A stretch of 64,000 nucleotides of DNA. Source: a virus. Taxonomy: Duplodnaviria > Heunggongvirae > Uroviricota > Caudoviricetes. The DNA lies in the IMG/VR virus record IMGVR_UViG_3300046518_000157, positions 24,398-88,397 of that record. One strand, given 5' to 3'. A model generated the notes under the pieces. The model made no database searches. It saw only the letters and a list, made by a program, of their open reading frames with translations, and was not told where the DNA came from. Below are positions 2,845-56,709 of the stretch, one piece after another. Numbering within the stretch: position 1 is the stretch's first letter; the number at the start of each line of letters is the position of its first letter. The translations under genes and the position numbers were made by a program.

Positions 2845-3701
2845 TATTCACTCCACCATTCGTCGTTAAGGATATGTTCAAGAATCTTGAAACCAACTCT
2901 ACAACCAGCAGCGTTGGGATGCCCGCCACCGCCTAGTGCTTTACATAGATCAGCTACGTTAACGCCACTATCTTTATGTGAGCGCATTGACAACACTACA
3001 TCATTGTCTTTGGTAATGAACCACATAATCGCAAGATCAACGTTAAGCGTTTTGTCTTCACAGATTGCTGCACCCTTCTCAGAGATGAACTCACCTGTGT
3101 TTAGAATCCCTGCTTGATACTTATCAAAGTTCACTACCCTGACTGTCTTTGGCACTGCTGCTTCAACGATTTGTTTCTGTTGTTGGAGCAAAGTGTTACC
3201 GATGTCGATAAGCTTTGGCAGTTCTTCTTCCTGCTCAGCATAGTTGTTCCATGCATCCATACGGCCTTTGAGAAGCCCAAGCCCTGAATGCACTGCTGCA
3301 CTTAGAGGAAACTTGAACTTCCACAAGTCACGGTCCTGAACGTACTGAAGCAACATCGGAACAGGGTCGTCGGGATGGAAATATTCCCAGGCTAGCACTG
3401 CCCCAGACTTGGTCATATCGAAGACCACGTCAGAAAGGCCTAGGAGGGCCTCCTGAGCAGTGGCGTGATGGTCGATGACTACTACCCTCTTGCAGCGGCT
3501 CCTGAGTGCCTCTAAAGCCGTCCTGGGCATACTGAAGTCTAACATGAATACCTCAGTGTAACTCGTCTGAGGAAAATCGGGTAGATTTTGACCATACTGA
3601 CAAGCATGGTATTCAGCATTGTCACCAAACTTCTTCCAAGCTGCGTAACGTGCACCCGTGCCATCCATGCATGAAGCATGGTAAAGAATTACTGTATTCA
3701 T
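2844..3701 (-). CDS. DHH-family phosphoesterase (NrnA/RecJ-like; candidate nanoRNase or pAp phosphatase)
   Basis: DHH motif VVIDHHATAQ and DHHA1-type GGGGHPNAAG motif near the C-terminus. Confidence 0.7.
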   Translation of the reverse strand: MNTVILYHASCMDGTGARYAAWKKFGDNAEYHACQYGQNLPDFPQTSYTEVFMLDFSMPRTALEALRSRCKRVVVIDHHATAQEALLGLSDVVFDMTKSGAVLAWEYFHPDDPVPMLLQYVQDRDLWKFKFPLSAAVHSGLGLLKGRMDAWNNYAEQEEELPKLIDIGNTLLQQQKQIVEAAVPKTVRVVNFDKYQAGILNTGEFISEKGAAICEDKTLNVDLAIMWFITKDNDVVLSMRSHKDSGVNVADLCKALGGGGHPNAAGCRVGFKILEHILNDEWWSE

Positions 3702-4561
3702 AGCTGAATCATGTCTGAGTCTGAGGTGATCAACTCACCATCAAAATATACCTCTGCTTCTACCGTGATTTCGCCATCTGATTCCTGAACGCTAAGACGC
3801 AGATCAAGACTCTCCTTAATGAGATCTCTGAGCATAGTCTTCAACTGTGATTCAGTAACAGTGAGCGGGGCTTCACTAACCGGTTCTCCAAAGATAGCAT
3901 TAGTGCCATTGGTAGAATTGCCGTTAGTGTAGTAGAAACTTCTATTCGTCGTGGTAGCAGGGGCAGCTGCCCACATACCTCCTCCAGTTGTAGCTGCTGA
4001 TGCAGCTGCTACTGTTGCGTACTCAATAGCTCCATTGGCATCATTCCCAAAAAGTCTACGAGTGGGACCTTCTTGGTTTAACCAGTCCTGTATAGCTATG
4101 CCAGCAGTTGCGCGGGCAGCATCAAAACCAACATGAACTGCAGCTAAAGATGGATGAACTCCATCCATAGTAGGCTCTGTAGTAGGCTGACCACGAGCCT
4201 GACGTCTTTGATTCTCTTGTTGCCTCAGACGTTGATCTGGGCGTTGATTCCACTGTGCCATGTCATCATTTCCTAAGTGTTGATCTACTTCGTATCGTAT
4301 ATCTCTAACAATTAACTCTGCGAAATCGGGCGATTCTCTACGTTGTAGAAAGAGAGGAACATGAGTTTGAACATAAAAGTACTCGATCGTACCTACCAGC
4401 CTAAATTGACATCTAATTGTATTAGAAGGCTCTGCTACATTGCCTGACCCTGCTAAATTAGGCAGTATTTGAATTTGTACAAAATTTACTCCCCTTGGAT
4501 ACCCGCGATAAGCCTCAGCGAGTAGATTTGATAAATCACTAACTACTTCTCGTATGTCCAC
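3698..4561 (-). CDS. Hypothetical protein
   Basis: 287-aa ORF with an Ala/Thr/Gly-rich central segment; no recognised motif. Confidence 0.5.
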   Translation of the reverse strand: MDIREVVSDLSNLLAEAYRGYPRGVNFVQIQILPNLAGSGNVAEPSNTIRCQFRLVGTIEYFYVQTHVPLFLQRRESPDFAELIVRDIRYEVDQHLGNDDMAQWNQRPDQRLRQQENQRRQARGQPTTEPTMDGVHPSLAAVHVGFDAARATAGIAIQDWLNQEGPTRRLFGNDANGAIEYATVAAASAATTGGGMWAAAPATTTNRSFYYTNGNSTNGTNAIFGEPVSEAPLTVTESQLKTMLRDLIKESLDLRLSVQESDGEITVEAEVYFDGELITSDSDMIQL

Positions 4562-4931: not shown

Positions 4932-4978
4932 GGTTTACCCTACTGTGCGTCTCCCTTATACCAAGGATTCGCAAGAAA

Positions 4979-4994
4979 CTGGACACATGTCCAG
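4979..4994. promoter_or_regulatory. Perfect 16-bp palindrome ctggacacatgtccag (operator-like)
   Basis: Read directly from the sequence; a second near-identical palindrome lies at 5512-5527. Confidence 0.5.
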
Positions 4995-5511
4995 AAATGT
5001 CCGTTTTCATTGAAACGAGAAAACGTATATAGAACAATGAGTTATAGCACTGCTGTCCAATTTGTCCAGAAACTTTTTAGAAAACTGGACAGGCTCTAAG
5101 CCTTTGTATATAAGGCTCACAGCGATTTTGTCCAGTTTTTTTCACTTTTTTCTAAAAACCATACCTCACTTTCTATTAGAAATAAAAAACTAGCAAAAAG
5201 GTTACCTCACCCTCTTATATATAAATATATTTTTTAAAAGTTCAAATATAAATATATATATAGTACCCCCATATTCCTGGACTGTTAGGGTGAACCCTAT
5301 GTTGTTACTTTTTTGTTTTTTTATTTATCAAATAGAAAGTGAGGTATGGTTTTTGGAAAAAAGGCCAAAAAACTGGACAATCGGGCTCTCAGCCTTATGC
5401 AGCAAGGGTTTCAGCTGTCCAGTTTTTTTTAGAGAAATTGGACAAACTGGACACGCTCCCCGCAAACCCTTTGTTTATAAGGCTCTAAGGTTTTTGGACA
5501 AAATGAGATTT

Positions 5512-5527
5512 CTGGACATGTGTCCAG
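5512..5527. promoter_or_regulatory. Second perfect 16-bp palindrome ctggacatgtgtccag
   Basis: Read directly from the sequence. Confidence 0.5.
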
Positions 5528-5543
5528 TTTTTTCTCAGAAGGC

Positions 5544-5570
5544 TAAAAAAAGCCGAGTCGAAACCCGGCT
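5544..5570 (-). terminator. Rho-independent terminator downstream of rsr
   Basis: Hairpin agccgag-tcgaaac-ccggct followed, on the minus strand, by a T7 run. Confidence 0.6.
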
Positions 5571-5593
5571 TTTACTTACTACAACCTTTCAAC

Positions 5594-7252
5594 TTACAGG
5601 TTGCCAGCAATGAATTCCGAAATGAACCTCGGAGTTGCAGTATCGAAACCAACCACGTCAAGCATATTGCGGTCAGTCGGATCAGCAATGCTGAAGTTGT
5701 TCACAGCCATACCAACCGTGATCAGCTTAGCTTCAGGCTTGTTCATACCCTGACGATACTTGCGTACCGCTTGGAACACGTGTTGGCCGCCAGACCACGT
5801 TTCGTTATCCGTGTAAACACAGACAGCGTCAACGTCCCACTTATGTTGAAGCGCATACTCGAACGGCAATGCACAATTCGTACCACCGAAGTTGTGCGCA
5901 CGAACCTTACCACACGCCGTAGCCAAAGTATCTTTGGATGTGATCCCGAGATCCTTAAAGCCATTAGCGCCGCTCGTGAAACCACGGATCTCAGTCCACG
6001 GCTCTGTGCGAGCGGTGACCATAGCCATGATTGCCGTACCTTCAGCACAGCTCAACAGAGGCGTATTGCTGATCGGAGCACTCATTGAACCCGATACATC
6101 CAGGCCCAACAGAATGTTCTTACCGGACGGCTCTATCGCTTCAAACGAAACATAGAACGCATCTTCCAGATCAGCCACAATGGTACGGGCCGGAGTCCAT
6201 ACGAGTGAACCCTTATCGCCACGGCCTTGCGCGTAGATCTTCTGCGCAACTACGATTGACATCGGATGCAGACGTTCCTTGCGGATGGCTTCAACATCGT
6301 GGAGCTTGGCAGATACAATCTTGCTCGTTTCCGAGAAAGGCTTGATCAAACCAACTGCCGTGAGCTTGTTCAGGTTACGAACCAGCGCACCCAGACCCAT
6401 GTGAGGCACAAGAGCTTCCCAAACCTTCGGGTCATTCTTCTGCTCATTCGGAATCATTTCGTGCGTGAGCTTGAAATCCTGGATCAGCTTAATCAATGTC
6501 TTCGTATCTGCAGTCTTGGCTTGCTCTGCAGCAATCAGAAGTTGAGGCACGAGATCGCCTTGCGACAGCGACTCTGCACCCTTGTTGATAAACTTGTACA
6601 GGTTCTGACGAACCGGATCGGTGCCAGGCTTGACGTGAGCCAGACGCATGATGTCCTTGTGGGACCAGCCGTCACGTTGCTTGTACTTTACGATCTGGAA
6701 CGCAAGCTTATCGGTATCCTTTGAGGAATACCAGTTCTGAACTACATTCTTGAGCGAACGGCCCCAACCACGCATACCGTTTGCGAATGCAACGAAGTGC
6801 ATGAAGTGCGTGCCAGTACGAGCCACGAGATTCAGCTTATCCTTCGCATACAGCTTGGTTGCCACGTCGCCGTGGGTGAAGACCAGAGCCATGACCAGAA
6901 GCGCATAGTCATTGTTCTTTGCACGGCCAGCTTGGCTGATCTCTACCACACGATCAACCACAACCTTGCCATTTGCCTTGATGAGCTTCACGATCTCATC
7001 AGTGTTCTGCTTCGTGATATCCTTTTCGCTAGCGTAGAACGTACCGCCGCTCGTGCCGATGATAAGGAATCGATCCAGCTTTTGAAGGCCAGAGATCTCA
7101 AATACAAAGCCGCCAGCGTTGTTCTTGACCTGAGCTACCGGAGCGTTGCCAGCCGGGCGATTCTGCGGCGTGGTACGTGCAACAGTACGGGTATTGGTAT
7201 TCTTTGCGAGGGTATTGAATGACATTTGAGGCTCCTTAAGTTTAGGGAACAA
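5594..7252 (-). CDS. rsr: Ro60/Rsr ortholog (TROVE domain plus C-terminal vWA domain)
   Basis: RFLIIGTSGGTFYASEKD...ISQAGRAKNNDYALLVMALV matches the Ro60 TROVE signature (human Ro60 FLCFGSEGGTYY...[20 protein letters not shown]). A vWA MIDAS motif (LLGLDVSGSM) is present. RBS GGAG sits upstream of the ATG. Confidence 0.8.
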   Translation of the reverse strand: MFPKLKEPQMSFNTLAKNTNTRTVARTTPQNRPAGNAPVAQVKNNAGGFVFEISGLQKLDRFLIIGTSGGTFYASEKDITKQNTDEIVKLIKANGKVVVDRVVEISQAGRAKNNDYALLVMALVFTHGDVATKLYAKDKLNLVARTGTHFMHFVAFANGMRGWGRSLKNVVQNWYSSKDTDKLAFQIVKYKQRDGWSHKDIMRLAHVKPGTDPVRQNLYKFINKGAESLSQGDLVPQLLIAAEQAKTADTKTLIKLIQDFKLTHEMIPNEQKNDPKVWEALVPHMGLGALVRNLNKLTAVGLIKPFSETSKIVSAKLHDVEAIRKERLHPMSIVVAQKIYAQGRGDKGSLVWTPARTIVADLEDAFYVSFEAIEPSGKNILLGLDVSGSMSAPISNTPLLSCAEGTAIMAMVTARTEPWTEIRGFTSGANGFKDLGITSKDTLATACGKVRAHNFGGTNCALPFEYALQHKWDVDAVCVYTDNETWSGGQHVFQAVRKYRQGMNKPEAKLITVGMAVNNFSIADPTDRNMLDVVGFDTATPRFISEFIAGNL

Positions 7253-7265
7253 AGTTTAAATCGAC

Positions 7266-7305
7266 TAAAAAAAGAAGGTCTGAATCCAAGATGGAAACAG
7301 ACCTT
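7266..7305 (-). terminator. Rho-independent terminator at the 3' end of the tRNA-like ncRNA block
   Basis: 9-bp stem gaaggtctg/cagaccttc followed, on the minus strand, by a T7 run. Confidence 0.55.
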
Positions 7306-7689
7306 CGGGTACTTCTAACTTACCACATGTGGTGCTGAACTGGGGACATCTAGGGATCCTGGTTACCAGGGCCCTGGAGATGCTCCTCGTGCTCATCATC
7401 TCCGCTCCAGTAGAGGCGTAGCCGACACTGGGCGGAAAGCTATAACTTAGAGTTACTCTAAGCCAGCAATCTAACAACTGCTTGAGATACGTAAGTCTAG
7501 TGGTACTGCGGTCATGACCTGACCTCATGCTGGGCTGTAAAGCGACCCAGCGGATCTCCGGCTGTAGTGGAGTAGCGCAAGACGTAGCGCAGCGGAGTCT
7601 TGTGGTACGCAACGGAAGCGGGAAGTTGATACCTACAGAGTTACTCTATAGTCACTTTCCAAACTGCAAAGTTAAATACGAAAGGTCAT

Positions 7690-7835
7690 GATGGGGATAC
7701 GGGCAAAAGGCGTGCTAGAAGATTTTACGTGCTCTATCCGCTAAGCTATACAACCCTCAAGGCTGCAGTTGGATTCGAACCAACGCCACGACTTCCGAAT
7801 AGTGATAATCTAACACTAACGGCCCGTAAAGAGGA
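7690..7835 (-). ncRNA. Y-RNA-like tRNA mimic, unit 1 (permuted tRNA-like domain)
   Basis: Minus strand carries a T-arm (GTTGG-TTCGAAT-CCAAC, plus 7772-7790), then a closed 7-bp acceptor-like stem-loop (TGCAGCC-ttgag-GGTTGTA), then TA, then a D-arm (GCTT-AGCGGATA-GAGC, plus about 7735-7755). It is preceded by a GGGCCGTT...GATTATC element. Confidence 0.5.
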
Positions 7836-7899
7836 AGTGAGCAAATGAAAGTGATCTGGAGGAAATCTTAAAAGGATAATCCAAATCGAAACGGCTCAC

Positions 7900-8045
7900 A
7901 AAATTGAAGCTGAACAAAAGGCGTACTGGAATTTTTAGCGCTCTACCAACTGAGCTATGCGGCAACCCGTAAGGCAACCACAGAAGGACTCGAACCTTCG
8001 ACCTCTCTATTAACAGTAGATAAACCAATACAAGCGGTTCAGCGA
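7900..8045 (-). ncRNA. Y-RNA-like tRNA mimic, unit 2
   Basis: Minus strand carries a T-arm (GAAGG-TTCGAGT-CCTTC, plus 7988-8005), then an acceptor-like stem closed by an 11-nt loop (TGTGGTT...TGCCGCA), then TA, then a D-arm (GCTC-AGTTGGTAG-AGC, plus 7933-7960). There is no anticodon arm. Confidence 0.5.
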
Positions 8046-8289
8046 AACTGAGAAAACGAACAAATGTTTGCCAAGGGAGATACTGGATTCACCAGCTTAG
8101 CTTTAGCTCAAGCAGAGTACAACAATGTTAACCCTCTTGAAGTATCTCTCGTTTCCGAGTACTGCTGATACGACTGTCGTTTAACTTTCCGATAGTAGAT
8201 AACCCTTAATGCGTTCGGTTCGTTTGAAAATTGATACGGGCAAAGAAATGAAACTAGGGGAATCAGTAAGAGGGATAACCTAGCATCGA

Positions 8290-8445
8290 ACGGCCCGTGA
8301 AATGGGAATGGACAAGTAATCGAATGGATCTGGAATCGCTGTGTTTACCAATTTCACCAACCCCGCAACTGCAGCGGAGTACAGGACTCGAACCTGTAAT
8401 TTGCGATTTGGGTTTAGATAAACCATTCTATCGGTCCATGAACTT
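8290..8445 (-). ncRNA. Y-RNA-like tRNA mimic, unit 3
   Basis: Minus strand carries a GGACCGA...GGTTTATC 5' element, a T-arm (ACAGG-TTCGAGT-CCTGT, plus 8381-8400), a 7-bp closed acceptor-like hairpin (ACTCCGC-tgcagtt-GCGGGGT), then TG and a D-arm-like GTG-AAATTGGTAAA-CAC. The 3' tail can pair with the 5' element with an internal loop. Confidence 0.5.
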
Positions 8446-8566
8446 TAATTCAGGCACTGACTCTTTAGAATCAATGCGAGGATTAAAGCGAGGGTGAGCA
8501 AAAAGAATAATGCTGGGGAGTAATCACCAATTGATAACCCAACATAAGAACGGCTCACTAAGGTTA

Positions 8567-8575
8567 TTATACCAT
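8567..8575 (-). promoter_or_regulatory. Variant of the recurring promoter-like motif (minus aTGGTATAAt) inside the ncRNA block
   Basis: Resembles the TTGGTATAAG motif found upstream of most genes; oriented to drive minus-strand transcription through the tRNA-like modules. Confidence 0.35.
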
Positions 8576-8699
8576 TACTTCTTAAATTATTGAAAGCGAA
8601 TTTTGAACTGGAAGATTTTTTGGCAGATAATCCAATTCGACGGCTCTCGAAACTTTTACAACTATAAGCTTGAACACATTCTGTGCAGAACCTACGACG

Positions 8700-9200
8700 G
8701 TCTCTTCCAACCAGGGGTGCCTGGCCAAGAGGACGACGTCGTACCACAGCTCCAGAATTAGCTTTACCTAGCTACAAGCTAGGTAGAGTCTTTGCTTTGC
8801 CTTTCGGAAAAGCAACGTAGAGCACTGTTGCAGATACTCTCTGGCTTCCAACTTAACCCTTTCCCTAAAGAACGGATATCGCTATTGAACCAGTTTGATA
8901 CTTCAAACTCTGTGCGACCCGAAGGTCGTTGTTCATGATGAACTCATGCGGTGCTTGATGTCCATCACCTGCAGCTCATAACTTATAGTTAACTATATTA
9001 GATGAGCTGTTCTCGAACCCAGAGCATCTCGGTCCCTGGGTTTCGCTGCAGGCGAAGACAACTTTCGAAGAATGTTACATACTTCTAGTAACGTTGTCGT
9101 TACTTCTATACTTCATCATGCCCCCAAAAGGGGTTCAAAAAGCAATTCTGTAGGATAACCCCAGGTTGCTCAATCAAGGGAAGGAGAAAATGTCCTACTC
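8700..9200. ncRNA. Highly structured non-coding region (nested stems with UUCG/GNRA-type tetraloops); strand and boundaries uncertain
   Basis: Nested inverted repeats include cctgcag.../...ctgcagg, cagctcat/atgagctg, cgaacccag/ctgggtttcg, cgacc-cgaa-ggtcg and ccagg-ggtg-cctgg. No ORF with any coding signature. Confidence 0.35.
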
Positions 9201-9214
9201 ACCATGCACAGCTA

Positions 9215-9385
9215 TTACGTCAACATCGAGAGTCTATCACGAGTATTGTCAGTAAGCCAACAACGTGGAAACTCTAGTGATGTGATTTCGGGATTGTCCT
9301 TAGTCGCCAGGTATTTACCCTGAGTATCTTCGATCAGAGCAAAGCCTTCTTCGTACTCTACAACGCTAATGATTTCATTAAACAT
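9215..9385 (-). CDS. Possible 57-aa small ORF (MFNEIISVVEYEEGFALIEDTQGKYLATKDNPEITSLEFPRCWLTDNTRDRLSMLT)
   Basis: Hand-translated; below the ORF-track length cutoff. Confidence 0.2.
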   Translation of the reverse strand: MFNEIISVVEYEEGFALIEDTQGKYLATKDNPEITSLEFPRCWLTDNTRDRLSMLT

Positions 9386-9411
9386 TTTGAATCGCCCTCT
9401 GTTGTTCCCGA

Positions 9412-9450
9412 GATAAAAAACAGAAAGGAGCGTAGCTATATATACGCTCC
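9412..9450 (-). terminator. Rho-independent terminator downstream of the HTH gene
   Basis: Hairpin ggagcgtagc-tatata-tacgctcc followed, on the minus strand, by CTTTCTGTTTTTTAT. Confidence 0.5.
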
Positions 9451-9484
9451 GTCGAATACTACTATAAGCGATTTATTCTTTTTC

Positions 9485-9772
9485 TTACACTACGGTAAGT
9501 TCTTGCGTAATGAAGTCTTGCGGCGTAACATCTGCTGCGTTAGCCAGCTTGACCAGCGTCGAGAGTTGCGGACGATAGTTACCAGCCAGAGCACCAAGGC
9601 GGCTGAACTTTTCAATGCGACGGATAGTGCTTTCTGAGAGCTTGGTTGCAGCTGCCATATCACTGATCGTCACTTCGCTTTCAAGACGGAGATTGACAGT
9701 GTTGCGAACTACGTTACGTGCTGCTGTTTGAATATTGAGTGCTGACATCTTGAACCTAAAACAAAGCCACAT
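9485..9772 (-). CDS. Helix-turn-helix (XRE-like) transcriptional regulator
   Basis: TISDMAAATKLSESTIRRIEKF is a typical HTH segment. The true start is probably an internal Met (MSALNIQ...). Confidence 0.5.
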   Translation of the reverse strand: MWLCFRFKMSALNIQTAARNVVRNTVNLRLESEVTISDMAAATKLSESTIRRIEKFSRLGALAGNYRPQLSTLVKLANAADVTPQDFITQELTVV

Positions 9773-9814
9773 AAAAAGGAAATGAAGAACACTCGATGTG
9801 GCTATGAATGTCCT

Positions 9815-9824
9815 TCACAATATG
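9815..9824 (-). promoter_or_regulatory. Recurring promoter-like motif (minus TTGGTATAAG), upstream of gene 9485..9772
   Basis: Plus-strand cttataccaa. One of 14 copies, all in the same orientation and all 30-130 nt upstream of a minus-strand gene, tRNA or ncRNA. Confidence 0.45.
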
Positions 9825-9853
9825 CTTATACCAACAAGTACTAAATTATTGAA

Positions 9854-10066
9854 TTAAGAGAAGGGTAAACCTCTGTTCTCTCGCCTCTCATAATACTCTT
9901 TCAATCGCTGCTGTTCCTGTCTATTATACTCAGCGATTTCACTAGTGACTTGAGAACGTCCTTCCTTAATTCCTCGTAAGTACTCTGACCTTCCGTACTC
10001 AGCGATTTCTTCTTCACTCATACTTCTCTTTTTCAGTCCAGAGAATACGTCCTTGATATTCCTCAC
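9854..10066 (-). CDS. Hypothetical small protein
   Basis: 70-aa ORF; the real start may be the internal Met (MSEEEIAEY...). Confidence 0.35.
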   Translation of the reverse strand: MRNIKDVFSGLKKRSMSEEEIAEYGRSEYLRGIKEGRSQVTSEIAEYNRQEQQRLKEYYERRENRGLPFS

Positions 10067-10742
10067 CGTGAATCAAATGATTCAATTCAAAGTCTTTGCC
10101 AGTGAGTGCTGCCCCGCAGAGCAGAGTGTCATCAAGACTCAAGCCTTCACGCCCATCAGTCAATACAACGTCTTTCATTTGCTGTGGGAGAAAGTCATTG
10201 ATGTCATCTAGAATTACGTATGACTCGACTGTAACAGGTACTTTAGATAGACTCTGAATAAGTCTTCCATTCTGTACGAAAAAGTCTGGACCTGTGTAGT
10301 AACGTTTTTCTTTAATGCCTTGAAGGAAATCAAATATCTGTTCTCCACGATTCCCACGAAACTCAGGGGTCTTGCCTATAACACGAGTAGGATCAATACC
10401 CATAGCGCCAAGCACCAACCTAAGACTGTAGATGTCAACGCCTTCTCTCCACGTAGATGAGACAACGATATGAGCATTGGTAGCAACGAGGAGCTTGTTA
10501 AGCAGTCCAACTGCGTACTTATCAATGCCTTCCGGATACTTCACATACGGAGCTTTAACAACTTTAGCCCTTGGACCTCCGAAGTAGCCCATATCAGCTT
10601 CATGGTCCACCTCAAGGTTAGGCCATGCCCCTGCAAGAATGAAAGTCTTGTCAGAGTTCAAAACTCCGTCGATATCCAAAAACACAAGACGTGTTTTGGA
10701 TGTGTCAAGCGTAGGTGCTTCGTCTTTAAGGGCAACGTCCAT
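10014..10742 (-). CDS. HAD-superfamily phosphatase (polynucleotide 3'-phosphatase/nucleotidase-like)
   Basis: HAD motif I LVFLDIDGVLNSD (DxDGV) near the N-terminus. Confidence 0.55.
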   Translation of the reverse strand: MDVALKDEAPTLDTSKTRLVFLDIDGVLNSDKTFILAGAWPNLEVDHEADMGYFGGPRAKVVKAPYVKYPEGIDKYAVGLLNKLLVATNAHIVVSSTWREGVDIYSLRLVLGAMGIDPTRVIGKTPEFRGNRGEQIFDFLQGIKEKRYYTGPDFFVQNGRLIQSLSKVPVTVESYVILDDINDFLPQQMKDVVLTDGREGLSLDDTLLCGAALTGKDFELNHLIHGEEYQGRILWTEKEKYE

Positions 10743-19991: not shown

Positions 19992-21398
19992 TTATATTGC
20001 AGCGTTCCTGCGAACTTCATTGAACGTCAGTTCCTTCACGAGCTTACCACCAGTGTACACGACTTCGAGATGATCGTCACGACCCATTGCATTTTCACGA
20101 CGGATCGTAGTCAGTTCACCGCTTTCGTCACTGACAAGTGCCAGACGCCCCTTCTTGCTAGTCTTGCCACCAGCAACAGGATCCTTGTACACGTCATTCC
20201 ACTTGCCATCGATTTGAATTGCCGAAGCCTTCATTGCAAAGCCAAACGTATCACGGTCAAGCTTCTGGTGAAGAGCACCACCCATACCGAATGCAACGTT
20301 CTCAGCACTGAAACCATCCATCTTCAGAGCTGTGAGAATAGCTGCGATTGAGATCGGGTTTACACCGTCGCCTTGGATGACACGAACCTTGTTCAGGACT
20401 TTGAACCCTTTACCGTTCGTCGCGTATCCGAACTTGTCTGCGAGAATCCCAACAACCGTCCTAACAACCGACACCGGATCTCCGGAATCAGGTCTAACAA
20501 CGAGAGTACCAGGCAAAGCAAGGACAAAATCACGAAGGGTATCGCCCCAGACGTTTTTGACAGCATTAAAGATGTCGTAACTATCAGAGACAACTGCGAA
20601 AAGGCCACTGCCGAACTTCTCAGCCATATTACGATATGCGTCCGCTTCTCCTGAACGCCCCCAACTAGTAATAGTACTATGCTCAGCAGCAGGGATGCTA
20701 AACCCAAGAGAATCACGTTCTGCTCCGTAGAATTGATGAGCGTACTCCATGCCGAGCATGGTGTCCGTACCCATGAAGTTCACCAAGTGTGCGGCACCAG
20801 CAATAGCAGAAGTTTCTGCAGAACTAGCACCACGAGCACCGAAGTCATGAAGCTTAAAAGGAAGCTCGTCAAGCGGCTTATCGCACGTATCGACCAGTCC
20901 TTTGAAGATGATTTCTTTACAGTGACGGCTGATCGTCGCAACTGTGGTACCAAACCAGGCCGCACGAAGGATTTGCGTTTCATAGAATGAACCCATCCAA
21001 AGCATTTCGGGATCGTGACATTCGACGTCAATGATAGCATTGCCGATAGGCACTTGCGTACCTTCAGCTACAGCACGGATCGTGATAGGCGCACGACCTC
21101 CGTACACTTCCACCACTTTACGGAATGCGCCTTCTGCAAACGGCTCTCCGTGAAGCTTACAGATACGTCCTGCTTCAATCACGTCGTCAAGCGCAATCGG
21201 AGTCAGAAGGTGATCCTTGATGTAGCCTTGAAGGCCAAACGGAGTTACGTGTGTGATACCGAAACCGCTATTGTCCTTACGGGGTTCTACGTAAGAAGAC
21301 AGAGCAGTTGCACCAGCCGGGTATTGCAGGAAATGGCTGTGCTTGTATGAATCGGTATTGAGAAGCGGATTGATTTTGAATTGTGACATTATTAACAC
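19992..21398 (-). CDS. nadV: Nicotinamide phosphoribosyltransferase (NAMPT/NadV)
   Basis: LLNTDSYKHSHFLQYP, KLHDFGARGASS, SIPAAEHSTITSWG, VVSDSYDIFNA, RPDSGDP, VIQGDGV and KKGRLAL all match NAMPT conserved blocks. Confidence 0.85.
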   Translation of the reverse strand: MLIMSQFKINPLLNTDSYKHSHFLQYPAGATALSSYVEPRKDNSGFGITHVTPFGLQGYIKDHLLTPIALDDVIEAGRICKLHGEPFAEGAFRKVVEVYGGRAPITIRAVAEGTQVPIGNAIIDVECHDPEMLWMGSFYETQILRAAWFGTTVATISRHCKEIIFKGLVDTCDKPLDELPFKLHDFGARGASSAETSAIAGAAHLVNFMGTDTMLGMEYAHQFYGAERDSLGFSIPAAEHSTITSWGRSGEADAYRNMAEKFGSGLFAVVSDSYDIFNAVKNVWGDTLRDFVLALPGTLVVRPDSGDPVSVVRTVVGILADKFGYATNGKGFKVLNKVRVIQGDGVNPISIAAILTALKMDGFSAENVAFGMGGALHQKLDRDTFGFAMKASAIQIDGKWNDVYKDPVAGGKTSKKGRLALVSDESGELTTIRRENAMGRDDHLEVVYTGGKLVKELTFNEVRRNAAI

Positions 21399-21442
21399 CT
21401 CGTTAATTAGAATGCCCAGAATCTATTTCTGGGACTTTTGTT

Positions 21443-22600
21443 TTAGATACCAAGCATCTTGCGAATGATCGATGAGTGATCTTCGAAGATCAGTTCAGCG
21501 TGACTTAGTACATAGTCGATCTCGTACCAGTCTGTAGCCTTTTGCAAAGCGGTGCTTGCGACTGCATCGTCGCCACCCTTTACCTTAGGAAGCCCCGGCT
21601 TTTTGTCCGACTTATCCAGGTCAAAAAGAAAAGCGTGCGAAATAGTGCGCCCACGCAAACTACGGCCAGGATGATCAAAAACAACACCGGCAGACATACT
21701 ACCGCTAAGAAGACCTCTTGGAAGGTCAATCGAAGTTTCCTCTTGTAATTCACGGATCGCCGCATCTTCAAGCCTTTCATTTTGTTCCAGGAATCCTCCG
21801 GGTAATGCAAGGAGTCCTTCCCCCGGTGCAGCTTTACGCTTCACCATCAAAATATGACCAGCCTTCTTGACAATCGCATCGACAGTCACAAAGGTAGGTG
21901 CATACGGTGCTGCTTTCCAGGAGTCTTTGTACTTCTGCACCATCTTGTATTCACGTCCAAGACGCAGATACTCCGGAGTTTTGATGAACTCCTTGATGAA
22001 GCTAAAAGTGTACTCCGGAACCAAACTTTTGAGAAGCTCAATGAAACCAGGCTTCTCAAAGATTACTTCACGGATAGCTGTAGCATCAAAGCCAAGCTTG
22101 ACTTCGTCTACTGCAACGTAATCGTACTGCGGAAAGAGATCAAGGTAGTACGAGCTTTCGTCTTTCTTGTTACCGACGATTGCAACCTTGCTTTTTACAT
22201 CTTTGTCTGTCCAACCCTTTCCTGCCAAGAGAACAGTTGCTACTTCGTTTTGCACGGAAGTAACCCACTCATCATCTGAGTAGAGGTTATCCACAAGCGG
22301 AGCCGTGAAAATGTTCGAAGTACCAGCCGCTTGAATAACCATTTGCGAACGTTCATCGTACGTAAATGGATTCTTGATAGTGCGTGGTGCGTGCGAAGAA
22401 CCGATAAGAACCAATACCTTGTCAGCCACCATGAACGCCTTATTCAAAAGGATCTGGTGACCTACATGCAAGGGTTCGAAACGACCAATGACTACAGCCA
22501 GGTCGTATTGATTTTCTTCTGTGGATACTGCAAGTTGTTTACTGCCAAAAGTAGCTGCGTACATTTCAGCCACTTCATGATAAAGTTTACTATGTGACAT
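21443..22600 (-). CDS. nadM: Bifunctional NMN adenylyltransferase/ADP-ribose pyrophosphatase (NadM-Nudix)
   Basis: N-terminal nucleotidyltransferase motif VIGRFEPLHVGHQ (HxGH) and C-terminal Nudix box LPGGFLEQNERLEDAAIRELQEETSI. Confidence 0.8.
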   Translation of the reverse strand: MSHSKLYHEVAEMYAATFGSKQLAVSTEENQYDLAVVIGRFEPLHVGHQILLNKAFMVADKVLVLIGSSHAPRTIKNPFTYDERSQMVIQAAGTSNIFTAPLVDNLYSDDEWVTSVQNEVATVLLAGKGWTDKDVKSKVAIVGNKKDESSYYLDLFPQYDYVAVDEVKLGFDATAIREVIFEKPGFIELLKSLVPEYTFSFIKEFIKTPEYLRLGREYKMVQKYKDSWKAAPYAPTFVTVDAIVKKAGHILMVKRKAAPGEGLLALPGGFLEQNERLEDAAIRELQEETSIDLPRGLLSGSMSAGVVFDHPGRSLRGRTISHAFLFDLDKSDKKPGLPKVKGGDDAVASTALQKATDWYEIDYVLSHAELIFEDHSSIIRKMLGI

Positions 22601-23204: not shown

Positions 23205-24608
23205 TTACTTCTTGACAATGTCTTGCTCACCACGGCGAACAGTCCAGTCATCAACGTCCTTATCATAGAAAACTGGGACACCATAGTCTTCCAGATACTT
23301 ACCAAGTGCCTGAGCAAATGGACGGACAGTAGCGTGAACAGTTTTACCAGAACGAAGTTCAGCTACGTACATAGCTTGTTGAACGGTGTACTTGAAAGCC
23401 ACCTGAACAACATTACCCATCGGGAGAATGTATTGACCGAAAGCTAAGAAAGCTTCGTCGCTTTCACGAACATCCAACCTGTCATACGTATCCTCAATTT
23501 TTTCAAGCAACTCATCAGCCTTCTTCTGAAGTTCAGGCGTAAGATTGTCGTAGTACCAAGGATGAATACCATACTCTCCTGTTACAACTGGCATTGTGCA
23601 GTAGCCATTACGATGACGTTGGATATCCCGGAATGAACCGAAGTCCATTCTAGACTCGGTCCAAATAGTGGTTTGAGAAACAAGGGAATGTTTATGGAGT
23701 TTGGTACGCTTGGGGCGATTTTTAAACCCAGGACACAGAGCCCTGGAATCTTCGTCTTCAATAGCGACAGTAAATGTTCCCAATTCAATAGGGTCTGTTA
23801 TCCTTTCGTAGCCCGTCACCTCTTGATACATAGCGTAGAAGTTCTGGAAGTCAGAGTTAAACTCATACACGTTATTGCCTTCGATGTTCCTAAGCTCACG
23901 CTCAAACTCTTCTTGTGTTGAGCAATTAGCTACGATTGCGTAATCCAGACGGAACGAATTAGGATACTTCATCTGCATCTGTTGATACGCCTTAGCTCCA
24001 AGAACTCGAACTTCCTCAAGCGGATGGTGCATCATCCAAATGAGATGCTCACCAGCGTTGCTAAGTCGTCCAGTCCAAGCCACATTGGTAGTAGCACCGA
24101 CAGGGAGAAAACCACGAAGAATATCAAAAGCACGTGCAGCAATAGCCTTGTCATAGGTAACTAGCTTGTCGCCTTCCTTGATTGGGTACACTGTCTTGAG
24201 ATGAGCCTTCAGAGGCTCAAGACTCTCGACATAGAACTTACGATACTCAGCGTAAAGATTTGCAATCCGACCGCTCATTTCTGAGTTCTTCGGAGCAGGA
24301 TCATAGAAGGGTTGATAGCTGAAATCGATGTAACGTGAGCTACACTCCTGTCCTACGAAAAGAGGGTTATCTTCAATAGCCTTTGCAGCTAGCATTGAGA
24401 TACCCTCGAAATACATTGTTTCAGAACCGCAGTCACCAATAGACGCATGTCCGTATCCCAGGTAGTATCGGGACATGAAATTACTTGAACCGACCTCATC
24501 AATCTTCTTGATGTGATCGGCTACGCTATCGATACTACGTGAGTACAACGCTTGAAGCATTGCGTTGTCTTCTGCATTCATGCAGGTATGAAGGATGATT
24601 CTGGACAT
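23205..24608 (-). CDS. ThyX-like flavin-dependent thymidylate synthase, long form
   Basis: N-terminal half has GHASIGDCGSETMYFEGIS...SSRY, which matches the ThyX block GHASVFEHASATFLVEGIS...SQRY. An RHR motif occurs only in the C-terminal half (DIQRHRNGY), consistent with a duplicated, fused ThyX. Confidence 0.45.
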   Translation of the reverse strand: MSRIILHTCMNAEDNAMLQALYSRSIDSVADHIKKIDEVGSSNFMSRYYLGYGHASIGDCGSETMYFEGISMLAAKAIEDNPLFVGQECSSRYIDFSYQPFYDPAPKNSEMSGRIANLYAEYRKFYVESLEPLKAHLKTVYPIKEGDKLVTYDKAIAARAFDILRGFLPVGATTNVAWTGRLSNAGEHLIWMMHHPLEEVRVLGAKAYQQMQMKYPNSFRLDYAIVANCSTQEEFERELRNIEGNNVYEFNSDFQNFYAMYQEVTGYERITDPIELGTFTVAIEDEDSRALCPGFKNRPKRTKLHKHSLVSQTTIWTESRMDFGSFRDIQRHRNGYCTMPVVTGEYGIHPWYYDNLTPELQKKADELLEKIEDTYDRLDVRESDEAFLAFGQYILPMGNVVQVAFKYTVQQAMYVAELRSGKTVHATVRPFAQALGKYLEDYGVPVFYDKDVDDWTVRRGEQDIVKK

Positions 24609-45133: not shown

Positions 45134-45209
45134 TTGGTGGAGAATACCGGGATCAAACCGGTCACCTCCGAGGTGCAAGCTCGGCGCTCTCTCAAATGAG
45201 CTAATTCCC
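45134..45209 (-). tRNA. tRNA-Ala (anticodon TGC)
   Basis: GGGGAAT/ATTCTCC with the G3-U70 Ala identity pair, anticodon loop CTTGCAC, CCA encoded. Confidence 0.65.
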
Positions 45210-45234
45210 CATAAACTTTACTTATCGATGCTGT

Positions 45235-45309
45235 GCTCCGGCCCCGGGAATCGAACCCAGCTTTATATTGATTAACAGTCAATCGCCTACACCTTGCTTG
45301 CTCGACCGG
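45235..45309 (-). tRNA. tRNA-Asn (anticodon GTT)
   Basis: Acceptor TCCGGTC/GGCCGGA-G, anticodon arm ATTGA-CTGTTAA-TCAAT, T-arm CTGGG-TTCGATT-CCCGG. Confidence 0.5.
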
Positions 45310-47888: not shown

Positions 47889-48139
47889 GCAAGTACGATC
47901 CGCTTTTCTTCATTCGGTGGTTCCTTCTTCATTGCATATTCCAGGAAATTAGCAACTGCGTTAGGACCGTAGAGTGTGCTCATCACTTCGATTGCCATAT
48001 ACTGATACTCGTCATTGGCAGTCTTAAGATCTCCGCTCATCGTAGCTGCGGCTGCTCTAATGGCGTATCTTTTTACTTCGTCCCAGTCAGGATCTGAAAT
48101 CTGATCGGGAACAACGTAGGGTTCTCTATTAATGTTCAT
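47885..48139 (-). CDS. Hypothetical small protein
   Basis: 84-aa ORF coupled by 4-nt overlaps on both sides. Confidence 0.4.
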   Translation of the reverse strand: MNINREPYVVPDQISDPDWDEVKRYAIRAAAATMSGDLKTANDEYQYMAIEVMSTLYGPNAVANFLEYAMKKEPPNEEKRIVLA

Positions 48140-49245
48140 AGTTCAATATCATCAAATGTTGATTCATCAAGTGTATTAACGATACCCTTAACGTAGGAAG
48201 TCTTTTCAGTCTCTTGTGGAGCAGGCTGCATATCACCTTCATTCAGCCACTTACCCATCCAAGGAAGCGGACGAGTCTTAGGTGAAGCATCAGGATATTC
48301 CATATGAATAGCCCGCATACGTTTTGCAGCTGTAAAGTCAAGTTCTGAATTAAGCATCGATTCATTAAGACCGATCAACGAACCTTCTTTGAAAAGAAAC
48401 TTGTTAAAGGTCTTTTCTTCACTCACGACTTCCATGAAAATATGCATGGATTCTTCAAGACAATCTTGTCTGATAACAAAGAATTCTTCATCGTCATCAG
48501 GTAGTGTACGAAGCAGCGCAGTCGTGAAGGCAACGTGCATCAATTCATCATTTGCAATCAACTTAATCAGACTCGAATTACCGATCATACGGCCAGTCTG
48601 ACCAAACGAAAAACTACAAGCGAAGGAAACAAAGAATCGAATACCTTCAAGAGCATTGATCGACTGCAGAGCCAGCCAAAGCTTCTTTTTCAGCTGATGC
48701 AAAGTAGTCATGTTAAGACGATACTTCGCAGTTTCCATCAACAGTTCATCGTAATAGCGGCTAATACTTTCACCGGCCCTGACGATAATGTCAATGTCCT
48801 TAATGCTTTCCGTTACTTCTGTCGGATTATTATATACGTTTTTCAGAATGTGTTCATAAGTCATGTTATGAACTTCTTCGAAATACGTGATGATATTGAT
48901 ACAACGTTTAATCATCGGATCCGAAGCCAGAGGTAGCAAAGCTTCTGCCAAGCCTAGACTCTGAATCGTATCCAGCATCATTTGACGCTTAAGATTCGAC
49001 GTAAAGATAAACTGTTCGTTAGTAGTTAGTACGTCATAGAAATCAATCTTGTCTTTCGTCAAGTTGATCTCAGTACGTTCCCACTTTGCTTCATCCATCG
49101 CCTGCGCTTGCTTCTCGAAGATCTTGTACTTGACAATATCCGAACGAGAAATATCAACAGTACCGGACTCGTCTAGAAACAACTTGATATCAAGCGGAGA
49201 CTTGTCGCGGATTTTAAATACGTGTAGGGGTGATTCTTGTGTCAT
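48136..49245 (-). CDS. nrdB: Ribonucleotide reductase class Ia small subunit (NrdB-like)
   Basis: Di-iron ligand pattern (EEVHNMTYEH, FFVSFACSF, ...ELMH...) and an acidic C-terminal tail. Confidence 0.65.
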   Translation of the reverse strand: MTQESPLHVFKIRDKSPLDIKLFLDESGTVDISRSDIVKYKIFEKQAQAMDEAKWERTEINLTKDKIDFYDVLTTNEQFIFTSNLKRQMMLDTIQSLGLAEALLPLASDPMIKRCINIITYFEEVHNMTYEHILKNVYNNPTEVTESIKDIDIIVRAGESISRYYDELLMETAKYRLNMTTLHQLKKKLWLALQSINALEGIRFFVSFACSFSFGQTGRMIGNSSLIKLIANDELMHVAFTTALLRTLPDDDEEFFVIRQDCLEESMHIFMEVVSEEKTFNKFLFKEGSLIGLNESMLNSELDFTAAKRMRAIHMEYPDASPKTRPLPWMGKWLNEGDMQPAPQETEKTSYVKGIVNTLDESTFDDIEL

Positions 49246-49508
49246 TCGCCAATCTTATACTCGTTAATAAGTCTAAGCATAAATTCGTTCTCTGCTTCCA
49301 GTCGTGCGCTCTGTGTAAGCATAGTTATAAATTCATGAGATAGACTGTCGTGCTTATCGCAAATCTTTAGGTACTCTCGCGCCAACTCTTGAGCGTCTAC
49401 CGCAGTGTAGTTTTGACTAGGATAAATAAACTTATTAGCCAACGCATAATTTCGTCTACTTCTAGTGTATTCTAAAGCCCTATTTGCTATTGCCCAAATT
49501 ATACCCAT
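49242..49508 (-). CDS. Hypothetical small protein
   Basis: 88-aa ORF between nrdA and nrdB. Confidence 0.4.
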   Translation of the reverse strand: MGIIWAIANRALEYTRSRRNYALANKFIYPSQNYTAVDAQELAREYLKICDKHDSLSHEFITMLTQSARLEAENEFMLRLINEYKIGE

Positions 49509-49511
49509 GAT

Positions 49512-49533
49512 GAAAAAGCCGGGTTTCCCCGGC
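49512..49533 (-). terminator. Rho-independent terminator
   Basis: Hairpin gccggg-tttcc-ccggc followed, on the minus strand, by a T5 run. Confidence 0.5.
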
Positions 49534-49538
49534 TCCTC

Positions 49539-49757
49539 TTATTCCCCTTCTATTCTATCCGCATCACTGACTCTTACTTCATCAGTGCCGAACAGATCGA
49601 AGAACGCTAGTGTGTATGCAGATGCTTTCTCATACCCTTTGTCATGGTAGTAGTCTCCGAACTCCTGGAGAATCTCACCGTCCATTTCGACAGTCACTTT
49701 CGTGTACATGTCGCTTTCTTCATTATCGAAATGTCTAACAATAACTAGATTGTACAT
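49539..49757 (-). CDS. Hypothetical small protein
   Basis: 72-aa ORF. Confidence 0.35.
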   Translation of the reverse strand: MYNLVIVRHFDNEESDMYTKVTVEMDGEILQEFGDYYHDKGYEKASAYTLAFFDLFGTDEVRVSDADRIEGE

Positions 49758-49765
49758 CTTCTACC

Positions 49766-55402: not shown

Positions 55403-56709
55403 GCTTGATCCTTGTTCTTAGTTACTACCACCATCGTCGAAGTAGCAATGTTATTTACACTATCACCGATTCCTTGAACAGAAATAGAGATTGCATGACC
55501 TTCCGAAACATTCCAGAACCAGTCACCGAATTCTTTAAGGCCCGGCTCCCACTTGTGATCATCATGACGGAACTGTGTTTCGTCCATCAGATAGTTCACA
55601 TTGAATTCCTTGTTAGGAACCGTGAGAATCAGCTTGTTGAAGTTAGTCTTCAGCACGGCTTGAATCAGCTCTGCTGCGACATCCTTTTCCATGTGTTCAA
55701 GCACTTCAGTGATGAGTACATCAGCTCCATCGAATAGAGCGCTGCAATCGTCAATTGATTCAGGAGTTGCTGCTTCTTTGAAGGTGATATTCTCAACTCC
55801 TCGACCACTGGCTTTCCCCACGGCGTTCTCACGTACTTCGTCATCCGCTTCATACGCAAGGATTTGTTCATACTTTGCACTGAGCGGGATCGAATAATTG
55901 AGTTCGCCGCACCCAATGTCAATGAGGACCGACCCTCCTCCCAAATGCGGGAAGATAGCCTCTTTACGTTGACTGAGAGTGTCCCCGTGCCAGAGGTTAA
56001 TACTGGGCGTATCGAGCAACGGCTTGTTTTTAGCAAAGGTTTCACGATTCGTAAACACATTCCGTTTAAAGAGGTATCGGATGAAGTAAGGTGCATCGAT
56101 GCGATTAATTGCATTGATGTACTTTTCAATGATATCTCCCTTAAGGTTGACGTAAATGCTCTTTGTCGTAACGCAGAACATCAAGAAAATAACCATTGCT
56201 GCATTCAGAAGATGATGAACACTAGGTCCGACAATGCGAACTTTGTATGCATGACCAGAAATCAGTTCTGCATGAAAGCTGTAGCCTTGATCGAAACCAA
56301 ACGGCCCATTGAAATGTTGCTCCATGTGCCTAAGCGTGCTTGCACTGCGAATCTCAACCGTAGTTTCGAGCCATGCGCTAAAAGGAACACTAGCATCTTC
56401 TTCCTGATGTTCTTTGAACGCAGTTGCCAGGCAGTTCGTCATCAGGCTAATCGGAAGGTACGGCGAAGCATAGCGAGTACGATCAAGATACTCAAACTCC
56501 TGGTCCCGCCCTTCGGCAAATGAGCAGTGCAGAGCATGATCCTTGAACCACAACCTAAAAGCTTGGTCTCCTTCTAGAAACCATCCGTACACTGAACCTT
56601 GTCGGATGGACTTCTTAAACGGATCTTTCGATTCACGAATCGTTGCGGGGTTTTTCTGAATGACCCAAGAAAACTTCGGGTTACTAGACCCAAGAGTAAG
56701 CACTGACAT
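55399..56709 (-). CDS. hen1: Hen1-like RNA 3'-terminal 2'-O-methyltransferase
   Basis: C-terminal Rossmann MTase motif I (VLIDIGCGE) with Hen1-type metal ligands (EVLEH ... RHDDH). A 4-nt overlap couples it to pnkp. Confidence 0.6.
   Translation of the reverse strand: MSVLTLGSSNPKFSWVIQKNPATIRESKDPFKKSIRQGSVYGWFLEGDQAFRLWFKDHALHCSFAEGRDQEFEYLDRTRYASPYLPISLMTNCLATAFKEHQEEDASVPFSAWLETTVEIRSASTLRHMEQHFNGPFGFDQGYSFHAELISGHAYKVRIVGPSVHHLLNAAMVIFLMFCVTTKSIYVNLKGDIIEKYINAINRIDAPYFIRYLFKRNVFTNRETFAKNKPLLDTPSINLWHGDTLSQRKEAIFPHLGGGSVLIDIGCGELNYSIPLSAKYEQILAYEADDEVRENAVGKASGRGVENITFKEAATPESIDDCSALFDGADVLITEVLEHMEKDVAAELIQAVLKTNFNKLILTVPNKEFNVNYLMDETQFRHDDHKWEPGLKEFGDWFWNVSEGHAISISVQGIGDSVNNIATSTMVVVTKNKDQA

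Follow-up and report, generated by a model that had tools for sequence, protein, structure and literature searches.

Y RNAs are thought to be adaptors in which a constant stem holds the Ro60/Rsr protein while a variable module selects the partner enzyme. Here we describe an array of Y RNA-like elements in 64,000 nucleotides of phage DNA (Caudoviricetes; positions 24,398 to 88,397 of IMG/VR record IMGVR_UViG_3300046518_000157). We refer to this whole stretch as the window. On its minus strand, at 5594-7225, the window carries rsr, a gene for a full-length Ro60/Rsr orthologue. The open reading frame extends to 7252, and the likely start codon is the ATG at 7225, which follows an AAGGAG ribosome-binding site. 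The product matches the TROVE (3.9e-35) and vWA_Ro60 (4.9e-54) families of Pfam, and its PDB matches include Deinococcus radiodurans Rsr (2NVO, E 1.1e-110) and Xenopus Ro60 (1YVP, E 7.4e-94). Directly upstream of rsr, on the same strand, lies an array of eight units, U1 to U8, that spans 8648-7698, and this arrangement is the same in all of the relatives described below. The array sits in a conserved, non-coding gap (9214-7253) that also holds four further structured RNAs. Open reading frames of 70-115 amino acids overlap the region, and the 115-amino-acid frame at 7265-7612 has no Pfam match. We rejected a coding reading of the region because the differences among relatives are indels and compensatory pair changes and do not follow codon-like patterns.

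Eight copies of a motif are confined to one strand upstream of rsr

A first-pass annotation of the window had described about eight copies of a short element resembling the Ro-binding 5' strand of Y RNAs. This description was borne out, and the sequences quoted in it are correct. The strict pattern G[AG]NCCG-N(6-16)-[AGT]TTATC has exactly eight matches in the window, all on the minus strand, with starts at 8646, 8556, 8437, 8296, 8221, 8040, 7897 and 7825. All eight fall within 820 nt (7825-8646), and outside the array the pattern has zero matches on either strand of the whole window. Dinucleotide-preserving shuffles of the window (n = 200) contained 1.17 ± 1.13 strict matches, with a maximum of 6. 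The biggest same-strand cluster within 900 nt never held more than two matches in any shuffle, compared with eight in the real sequence. Loosening the pattern returned the same eight copies and eight scattered chance matches.

Two details of the earlier description needed adjusting. Its interval, 7805-8650, contains all eight 5' elements but misses the 3' half of U8. The proposed pattern G-G-N-CCG-A is right in that CCG is present in all eight elements; however, an A directly follows CCG in only two of them (CCGAU in U3 and CCGAA in U5), and the others read CCGU or CCGC. G-R-N-C-C-G is found in 8/8 units of the window, and CCG is invariant in 41/41 distinct units from six loci.

Each element is the 5' strand of a self-contained stem-loop

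Unit limits were set by folding each stretch from one element to the next with RNAfold, together with a search for the partner strand. Every element (8/8) is the 5' strand of a self-contained stem-loop, and the eight units share a common plan. A terminal stem of 6-8 bp (e.g., GUGAGC/GCUCAC, ACGGGC/GCCCGU or GCUGAAC/GUUCAGC) leads into an asymmetric internal loop. The 5' side of this loop reads C-G-N2-7, an unpaired C and then G, and the 3' side is U-rich with UU(U)G at its end. Next come a second helix (6-8 bp; e.g., GAUUUGGA/UCCAGAUC) and a conserved UUAUC. The second C of CCG has no partner, the U that precedes the 3' stem (UUUG) is available to pair with the G of CCG, and the U-rich loop opposite measures 6-11 nt. 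Of 200 shuffles of the sequence 3' of each element, 0-2 attained the real score for stem plus helix in seven units, and 12 did so in U3.

The units differ at their apex. Four of them are short hairpins that end in a small pyrimidine-rich loop. U1 (8592-8648, minus strand, as are all units; 57 nt) pairs GAGAGC with GCUUUC and GAAUUGGA with UCCAGUUC in its second helix before UUAUC and the loop, and its score was reached in 0/200 shuffles. U2 (8494-8558, 65 nt) has the stem GUGAGC/GCUCAC and the second helix AUGUUGGG/CCCAGCAU. U4 (8236-8298, 63 nt) has ACGGGC/GCCCGU and GCUAGG/CCUAGU. U7 (7837-7899, 63 nt) has GUGAGC/GCUCAC, and its second helix is the GAUUUGGA/UCCAGAUC pair given above.

Three longer units resemble the bacterial Y RNA YrlA: U3 (8308-8439, 132 nt), U6 (7909-8043, 135 nt) and U8 (7698-7828, 131 nt). 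Their apical domains follow one order, a T-arm with GGUUCGA[A/G]UCC, an acceptor-like stem closed by a hairpin, and a D-arm with a GG loop. The T-arm is CAGGUUCGAGUCCUG in U3 and GAAGGUUCGAGUCCUUC in U6, where the D-arm is UAGCUCAGUUGGUAGAGC. The first-pass annotation had placed the elements ahead of a tRNA-like module wherever one exists, and T-arm, acceptor-like stem and D-arm do follow the elements of U3, U6 and U8. The 5' strand of U8, GGGCCGUUAGUGUUAGAUUAUC, is the closest of all the units to vertebrate Y RNA 5' ends.

U5 (8054-8225, 172 nt) belongs to neither group. Its Y RNA-like stem (AAACGAAC/GUUCGUUU and UUAAGGG/CCCUUGG) carries an apical domain of about 125 nt with several hairpins, which is not tRNA-like and is conserved in six loci. 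The six U5 orthologues support 36 predicted pairs, of which 14 show compensatory changes. The apical domain of U5 has no match in Rfam.

The spacers from U3 to U8 are 8-10 nt long and pyrimidine-rich. The spacer between U2 and U3 holds a 46-nt hairpin (8444-8489, minus strand), whose base, GCUUUAAU...AUUAAAG, is conserved and whose upper stem differs between relatives. Because no U-run follows it, this hairpin is probably not a terminator. It is possibly a processing or protein-binding site.

Pairing in the units covaries among related phages

Five IMG/VR or metagenome contigs (L002, L003, L004, L005 and L008) encode an Rsr that is 73-93% identical to that of the window. Each contains 7-9 units of the same kind upstream of rsr, and units have been gained or lost between the phages. 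The elements are retained in all five; their absence from relatives that keep rsr had been named by the first-pass annotation as grounds for refutation. A further contig, 99% identical, is probably the source of the window. Searches elsewhere gave no further relatives: a blastn search with 7200-9200 found no match among 50,697 phage records, and in genome contigs the U7 pattern had 0 matches and a scan with an Rsr profile gave no confirmed relative. These scans identified neither a host nor a prophage.

We consider unbiased MAFFT alignments to be the safer evidence for covariation. The alignment of 13 full-length tRNA-like units has 21 consensus pairs, of which 17 have changed on both sides. 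In this alignment 97.8% of cells are paired, compared with 77.2% in shuffles (0/500 reach the real value) and 27-44% when the partner strand is slid by 1-3 columns. The T-arm sequence GGUUCGARUCC is invariant in 13/13 units, and the T stem and D stem both covary. A MAFFT alignment of 17 short units likewise shows compensatory changes in both helices. In a 45-column alignment (A3) of the two helices from 41 distinct units at six loci, 94.4% of cells are paired, compared with 68.2% in shuffles and 25-44% with the partner slid, and 12 of 14 pairs are doubly changed; the register of this alignment was chosen by best pairing, which inflates the percentage, so we use it as supporting evidence only. 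For each element, the complement lies 3' of the apical domain and pairs with it in a covarying manner; lack of a conserved partner strand was the other refuting result named in the first-pass annotation. G-U accounts for about 10% of the paired cells in the 41-unit alignment, and on the other strand such pairs would be A-C mismatches. Therefore, the structure belongs to the minus-sense RNA transcript.

Covariation of this kind bears on whether the repeats act as DNA. Operators and origins typically have repeated short motifs, and an array that immediately precedes rsr, shares its strand and is closed by a terminator-like hairpin might be a set of DNA-level sites (iterons or operators), or of leader or attenuator hairpins that control rsr in cis, rather than independent RNA genes. 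However, it is the pairing that is conserved rather than the sequence, with many double compensatory changes and with G-U pairs only in the minus-sense transcript. The units are 57-172 nt long with elaborate conserved apical domains, a conserved promoter-like site lies inside the array, and the bacterial homologues are stable trans-acting RNAs (PMC4201824). Taken together, these observations make DNA-level or cis-regulatory repeats a highly unlikely explanation of the array.

Unit types also differ among the relatives. A Y stem with only a T-arm (GGGUUCGACUCCC), a type that is missing from the window, follows U8 in L002 (1494-1609), L003 (4470-4578) and L008 (3770-3876). Another type missing from the window, a 90-nt unit with a GGUCGAAAGACC hairpin, is present in L004 and L005 (3788-3877). 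L002 has no U6-type unit. These differences in unit type indicate that units are gained and lost as modules. L004 has in addition an insertion of about 450 nt (4110-4560) between U7 and the flanking RNA D1, with an open reading frame whose translation, judged by eye, resembles a small homing-type endonuclease. The RNA island appears to tolerate mobile insertions.

Models built from the units find related RNAs beside other phage Ro genes

YrlA (RF02553) is the only Rfam family that matches the region, with 39.8 bits for U6 (E 1.5e-6) and a partial match of 22.3 bits for U8. At Rfam gathering thresholds, 19 rsr loci gave tRNAs only and no YrlA, and these loci included the Ro neighbourhoods of the phages Ava3, BearBQ and Comrade. 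Mycobacteriophage YrlA RNAs have been published (PMC4201824). Because nothing is found beside the Ro genes of these three phages, the YrlA threshold is narrow, and falling short of the gathering score is uninformative.

We built one model, R3, from the 13 tRNA-like units and another, R2, from the short units. An earlier model, R1, made from the trimmed 45-column "mini-Y" alignment, was dropped for searching; with its variable loops removed, it missed real units. On the window, R3 found U8, U3 and U6 (114.4, 107.1 and 106.9 bits). Across the whole window R2 found only U7, U2, U4 and U1 (67, 65.4, 63.1 and 43.3 bits, the last with E 5e-10).

R3 also has full-length matches immediately upstream of the Ro-like genes annotated in Gordonia phage BearBQ (56.6 bits, E 3e-12), Mycobacterium phage Ava3 (46.7 bits) and Streptomyces phage Comrade (48.4 bits). 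Their positions in our extracted loci are 3187-3318 (L063, BearBQ), 3167-3310 (L064, Ava3) and 2697-2828 (L062, Comrade), and the records examined annotate no RNA feature there. R3 further matches most metagenomic rsr loci, and all of its matches are on the rsr strand. The same holds for R2, with 40/40 matches on the rsr strand across 47 loci. Counting model matches and motif copies, other rsr loci have about 2-5 units (up to 5-6 by motif, in L027) compared with 7-9 in the clade of the window. Across the ~45 Ro loci examined, the array ranks as the largest, and its eight units are the upper end of a continuous distribution of the same kind of thing.

The tRNA-like modules raise the question of whether the array is a decayed or rearranged tRNA gene cluster, with T-arm and D-arm left over from successive tRNAs and the element as their spacer or signal for processing. 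ARAGORN calls at least 21 tRNA genes in the phage, on the strand that carries the array, and its tandem tRNAs do give partial matches to the Y model across the T-arm of one and the D-arm of the next (45181-45260 and 37399-37468), a known artefact (PMC4201824). However, only three of the eight units have a tRNA-like part, and in U3, U6 and U8 that part is enclosed by a covarying closing stem. ARAGORN finds no tRNA in 7253-9214, the Rfam tRNA model reaches 17.9 bits against a threshold of 29, and the same architecture recurs in the relatives and beside the Ro genes of distant phages. We regard a tRNA cluster in decay as hardly credible.

Predicted transcription and processing of the array

The spacer between U1 and U2 contains a promoter-like site on the minus strand (8566-8594). 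It consists of TTCAAT, 17 nt and a TATAAT with a TG extension (TGGTATAAT at 8574-8566). The start predicted from it is at about the first base of U2. The site is kept at the same place in all five related contigs, and it is one of 17 TGGTATAA[G/T] sites in the window, all of them on the minus strand. A terminator-like hairpin (7267-7306, minus strand; GAAGGUCUG...CAGACCUUC followed by seven U) separates the RNA genes from rsr and is conserved in the relatives. The roles of promoter and terminator are assigned to these two features from their sequence, and we treat both as putative.

The extended -10 motif TGGTATAAG recurs in the window, for example at 9833, 8574, 4963, 12772, 17935, 46968 and 63089, often after a TTCAAT-like sequence. 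With one mismatch allowed, 25 matches occur compared with 11 expected, all but one of them on the minus strand, and the motif looks like the phage's own promoter family.

The first-pass annotation had suggested a multi-unit precursor or several independent units. Because the terminator-like hairpin precedes rsr and U1 lies upstream of the internal promoter, a single eight-unit precursor as such is unlikely. We propose that U2-U8, and probably D1 and D2 as well, would be transcribed as one precursor from the putative promoter at 8594-8566 to the putative terminator at 7306-7267, and that U1, with the flanking RNAs P1 and P2, would come from a start further upstream. The precursor may then be cut in the 8-10-nt pyrimidine-rich spacers to release single RNAs. 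In Mycobacterium smegmatis, a shared precursor encoded upstream of rsr yields both YrlA and YrlB (PMC4201824), and processing of the array would be analogous. The tRNA-like units may also be handled by tRNA enzymes.

Four further structured RNAs flank the array

Two conserved structured RNAs lie upstream of U1, P1 (~9122-8931) and P2 (~8937-8665), and two of about 185 nt each lie between the array and the terminator-like hairpin, D1 (~7691-7512) and D2 (~7506-7315). All four are on the minus strand. P1, D1 and D2 share a 7-9-bp closing stem, a 5' GUAU, a GNRA hairpin (AUAGAGUAACUCUAU or UAUAGUUAACUAUA), GAGAU and a 3' CAUGAG. D1 and D2 form 39 pairs, 19 of them with compensatory changes, and folding of the D1-D2 stretch is far stronger than that of shuffled sequence (z = -6.2). 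None of the four has an Rfam match at E <= 10 in 6500-10000, and at this cutoff Rfam also gave nothing for self-cleaving ribozymes or for large RNAs such as GOLLD, ROOL and similar, which we rejected as identities for the flanks. A pattern scan of IMG/VR for the D1/D2 motif returned 60 stretches, with genuine copies only in the five relatives already known.

Counting the flanks, the gap may be an island of about 12 RNA genes in which P1, D1, D2 and perhaps P2 form an undescribed family of about 185 nt. Such a family could be a second class of Rsr-associated RNAs, whether ligands, substrates or regulators, and the whole island, together with Pnkp/Hen1 as described below, could then serve the phage during infection as a toolkit that redirects host RNA decay or repair enzymes, for example against tRNA-targeting defences. 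This is a tentative suggestion, and the odds are against it.

The phage also encodes RNA-repair genes and many tRNAs

The window encodes an RNA-repair gene pair on the minus strand, Pnkp (kinase-phosphatase-ligase, 52982-55402) and Hen1 (N-terminal domain plus methyltransferase, 55399-56709). A protein with a HAD_SAK_2 "Swiss Army Knife RNA repair" domain is encoded at 10014-10742, 2.8 kb upstream of rsr. Further genes serve auxiliary metabolism (19992-22600, 23205-24608, 48136-52063 and 60014-61723) and include NAMPT-like and NMNAT-Nudix genes for NAD salvage, ThyX and both ribonucleotide reductase subunits. The presence of Pnkp, Hen1, the SAK-type HAD protein, NAD salvage and the many tRNA genes fits a role in RNA metabolism during infection.

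This context also bears on a different main role for the array than tethering Rsr, in which its RNAs would be Y RNA-shaped decoys or sponges, that is, tRNA mimics for host tRNA-targeting nucleases or modification enzymes, or else substrates or guides of the phage's RNA repair by Pnkp/Hen1 and the SAK-type HAD protein. Those enzymes and the many tRNAs of the window accord with such a use. YrlA is a substrate of tRNA enzymes (PMC4201824), and phage Bas63 has a Ro60-like protein that counters the ppl defence system (PMC11482910). However, the part common to all eight units is the Rsr-type stem and not the tRNA-like part, and 5/8 units have no tRNA mimicry at all. Across distant loci the RNAs occur strictly beside rsr, which points to Rsr as the partner that they share. 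We judge decoys or repair substrates to be an unlikely account of the array.

Several other features of the genome were observed. Two of the tRNAs, on the minus strand, are unusual: one (38676-38751) has a CUA anticodon, is labelled tRNA-Pyl by ARAGORN (amber-suppressor type) and scores 74.8 bits with the Rfam tRNA model, and the other (37443-37515) has an irregular anticodon loop ("ct"). They hint at possible stop-codon reassignment or suppression in the phage. Downstream of rsr, a terminator hairpin follows the stop codon (~5570-5545). The 660-nt intergenic region there (4932-5593) holds 13 of the 30 TGTCCA/TGGACA hexamers of the window, several of them palindromic (CTGGACATGTGTCCAG), along with a TATATA tract rich in A and T, and could serve as a replication origin or a cluster of operators. 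With a family A DNA polymerase that shares only ~45-47% identity with those of Salmonella phage Arash and Vibrio phages, the phage is distant from cultured ones.

Discussion

We conclude, with a probability of roughly 85%, that the array consists of eight tandem Y RNA genes of the bacterial and phage YrlA/YrlB type, each with one of the elements as its Rsr-binding 5' strand, and that these genes lie on the same strand as, and directly upstream of, a phage Ro60/Rsr gene. The anatomy, covariation, synteny and homology of the units are established at the level of sequence. That the elements are of the Ro/Rsr-binding type, as the first-pass annotation proposed, is supported by their partner strands, by covariation and by the adjoining bona fide rsr, and binding itself would follow by analogy with known Y RNAs.

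Several observations weigh against this conclusion. No unit reaches the YrlA gathering score (best 39.8 versus 69 bits), U3 has no match to this family, and the metazoan Y_RNA model (RF00019) has no match at E <= 10 in 6500-10000. The full bacterial motif GNCGAA occurs only in relatives from other loci, the loop opposite CCG is 6-11 nt long where vertebrate Y RNAs have a 3-nt bulge, and the high pairing in the 45-column alignment owes something to its register. The position of a putative terminator between the RNA genes and rsr, and of U1 upstream of the putative internal promoter, also has to be counted here.

By analogy with known Y RNAs, the most likely function of the units is to bind the phage Rsr and to tether it to different partners. 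Work on D. radiodurans, Salmonella Typhimurium, M. smegmatis, Xenopus and the Thermus phage phiLo suggests that the CCG-bearing stem would dock on the outer surface of the Rsr ring and gate its cavity. The variable apical domain would then tether Rsr to a partner such as the host PNPase. With eight RNAs and at least three module types, the phage may form several differently targeted Rsr particles.

Eight adjacent Y RNAs provide a compact natural test set for the adaptor idea: three of the modules are tRNA-like, four are minimal hairpins and one is a new 125-nt domain, and the phage encodes more than 20 tRNAs as well as RNA repair by Pnkp/Hen1. Most phage Y RNAs are missed at the curated Rfam YrlA threshold, and the models built from the units recover them beside Ro genes in published Gordonia, Mycobacterium and Streptomyces phage genomes.

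Comparison with known Y RNAs

U3, U6 and U8 resemble YrlA (RF02553) in having an Rsr-binding stem, a YUAY/UUAUC junction, an optional V region, a permuted tRNA-like module and a return to the stem. The module comprises a T-arm with GGUUCGA(A/G)UCC, a loop-closed acceptor-like stem and a D-arm with a GG loop, and the units lie within 2 kb of rsr on the same strand. They differ from YrlA in their Rfam scores, in belonging as three such units to a larger array and in their motif, which is G-R-N-C-C-G-(U/A/C) rather than GNCGAA. Chen et al. described two bacterial motifs, GNCGAAN0-1G close to the 5' end and, where the V region begins, a conserved YUAY, and they likened the former to the GGUCCGA contacted by Xenopus Ro60 (PMC4201824). 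The UA of YUAY forms a kink that joins the Rsr-binding and tRNA-like modules (bioRxiv 10.1101/312249). GNCG is present in 5/8 units of the window and CGAA in U5 only, with AA mostly replaced by U. Distant rsr loci carry GGGCCGAAG or GAGCCGGA at this place in the 5' strand.

U1, U2, U4 and U7 can be likened to the short Y RNAs of the YrlB/Yrn2 type, namely YrlB of S. Typhimurium and M. smegmatis and Yrn2 of D. radiodurans (PMC4201824). They differ in that there are four of them here, all of which retain UUAUC, which in YrlA marks the junction to the tRNA-like module. To our knowledge, there is no curated family for YrlB-type RNAs.

The likeness to the 5' end of vertebrate Y RNAs, pointed out in the first-pass annotation, is real. 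The 5' end of human Y4 is GGCUGGUCCGAUGGUUAGUGGGUUAUC (PMC5331234, Table 3), and the UUAUC motif is conserved in both vertebrate Y RNAs and nematode sbRNAs (PMC4726728). In vertebrates the Ro site is a helix of 7 bp that has a bulged C and, across from it, a bulge of 3 nt (PMC4726728). The units of the window share the layout of the 5' strand, that is, a terminal stem, CCG with a potentially bulged C and then G-U, a second stem and UUAUC, and the 5' strands of human Y4 (GGUCCGAUGGUUAGUGGGUUAUC), U3 (GGACCGAUAGAAUGGUUUAUC) and U8 are alike. The vertebrate layout (CCG ... UUAUC) is thus preserved nearly letter for letter in phage RNAs. The resemblance to metazoan Y RNAs is confined to this layout; in addition to the larger opposite loop, the units form a tandem array whereas vertebrate Y RNAs are individual genes, and an oligo-U 3' end of the Pol III/La type is not a defining feature here.

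A further parallel comes from a phage. Thermus phage phiLo has two Yrls, located upstream of phiRo60, that form complexes with the host PNPase (PMC12135203). In both phages the Y-like RNAs immediately precede a Ro60 gene and share its strand, and capture of host PNPase is the use proposed for those of phiLo. The phages differ in the number of RNAs (two versus eight), in that the phiLo RNAs were picked by a CGAA motif, and in the protein, since phiLo Ro60 is distant from the Rsr of the window (E 1.4e-9). Y RNAs that neighbour phage Ro genes are already known, and here they form an unusually long, modular tandem array. What sets this locus apart is the size of the array and the diversity of its modules, together with a near-vertebrate 5' strand, the new domain of U5 and the unexplained RNAs at its flanks.

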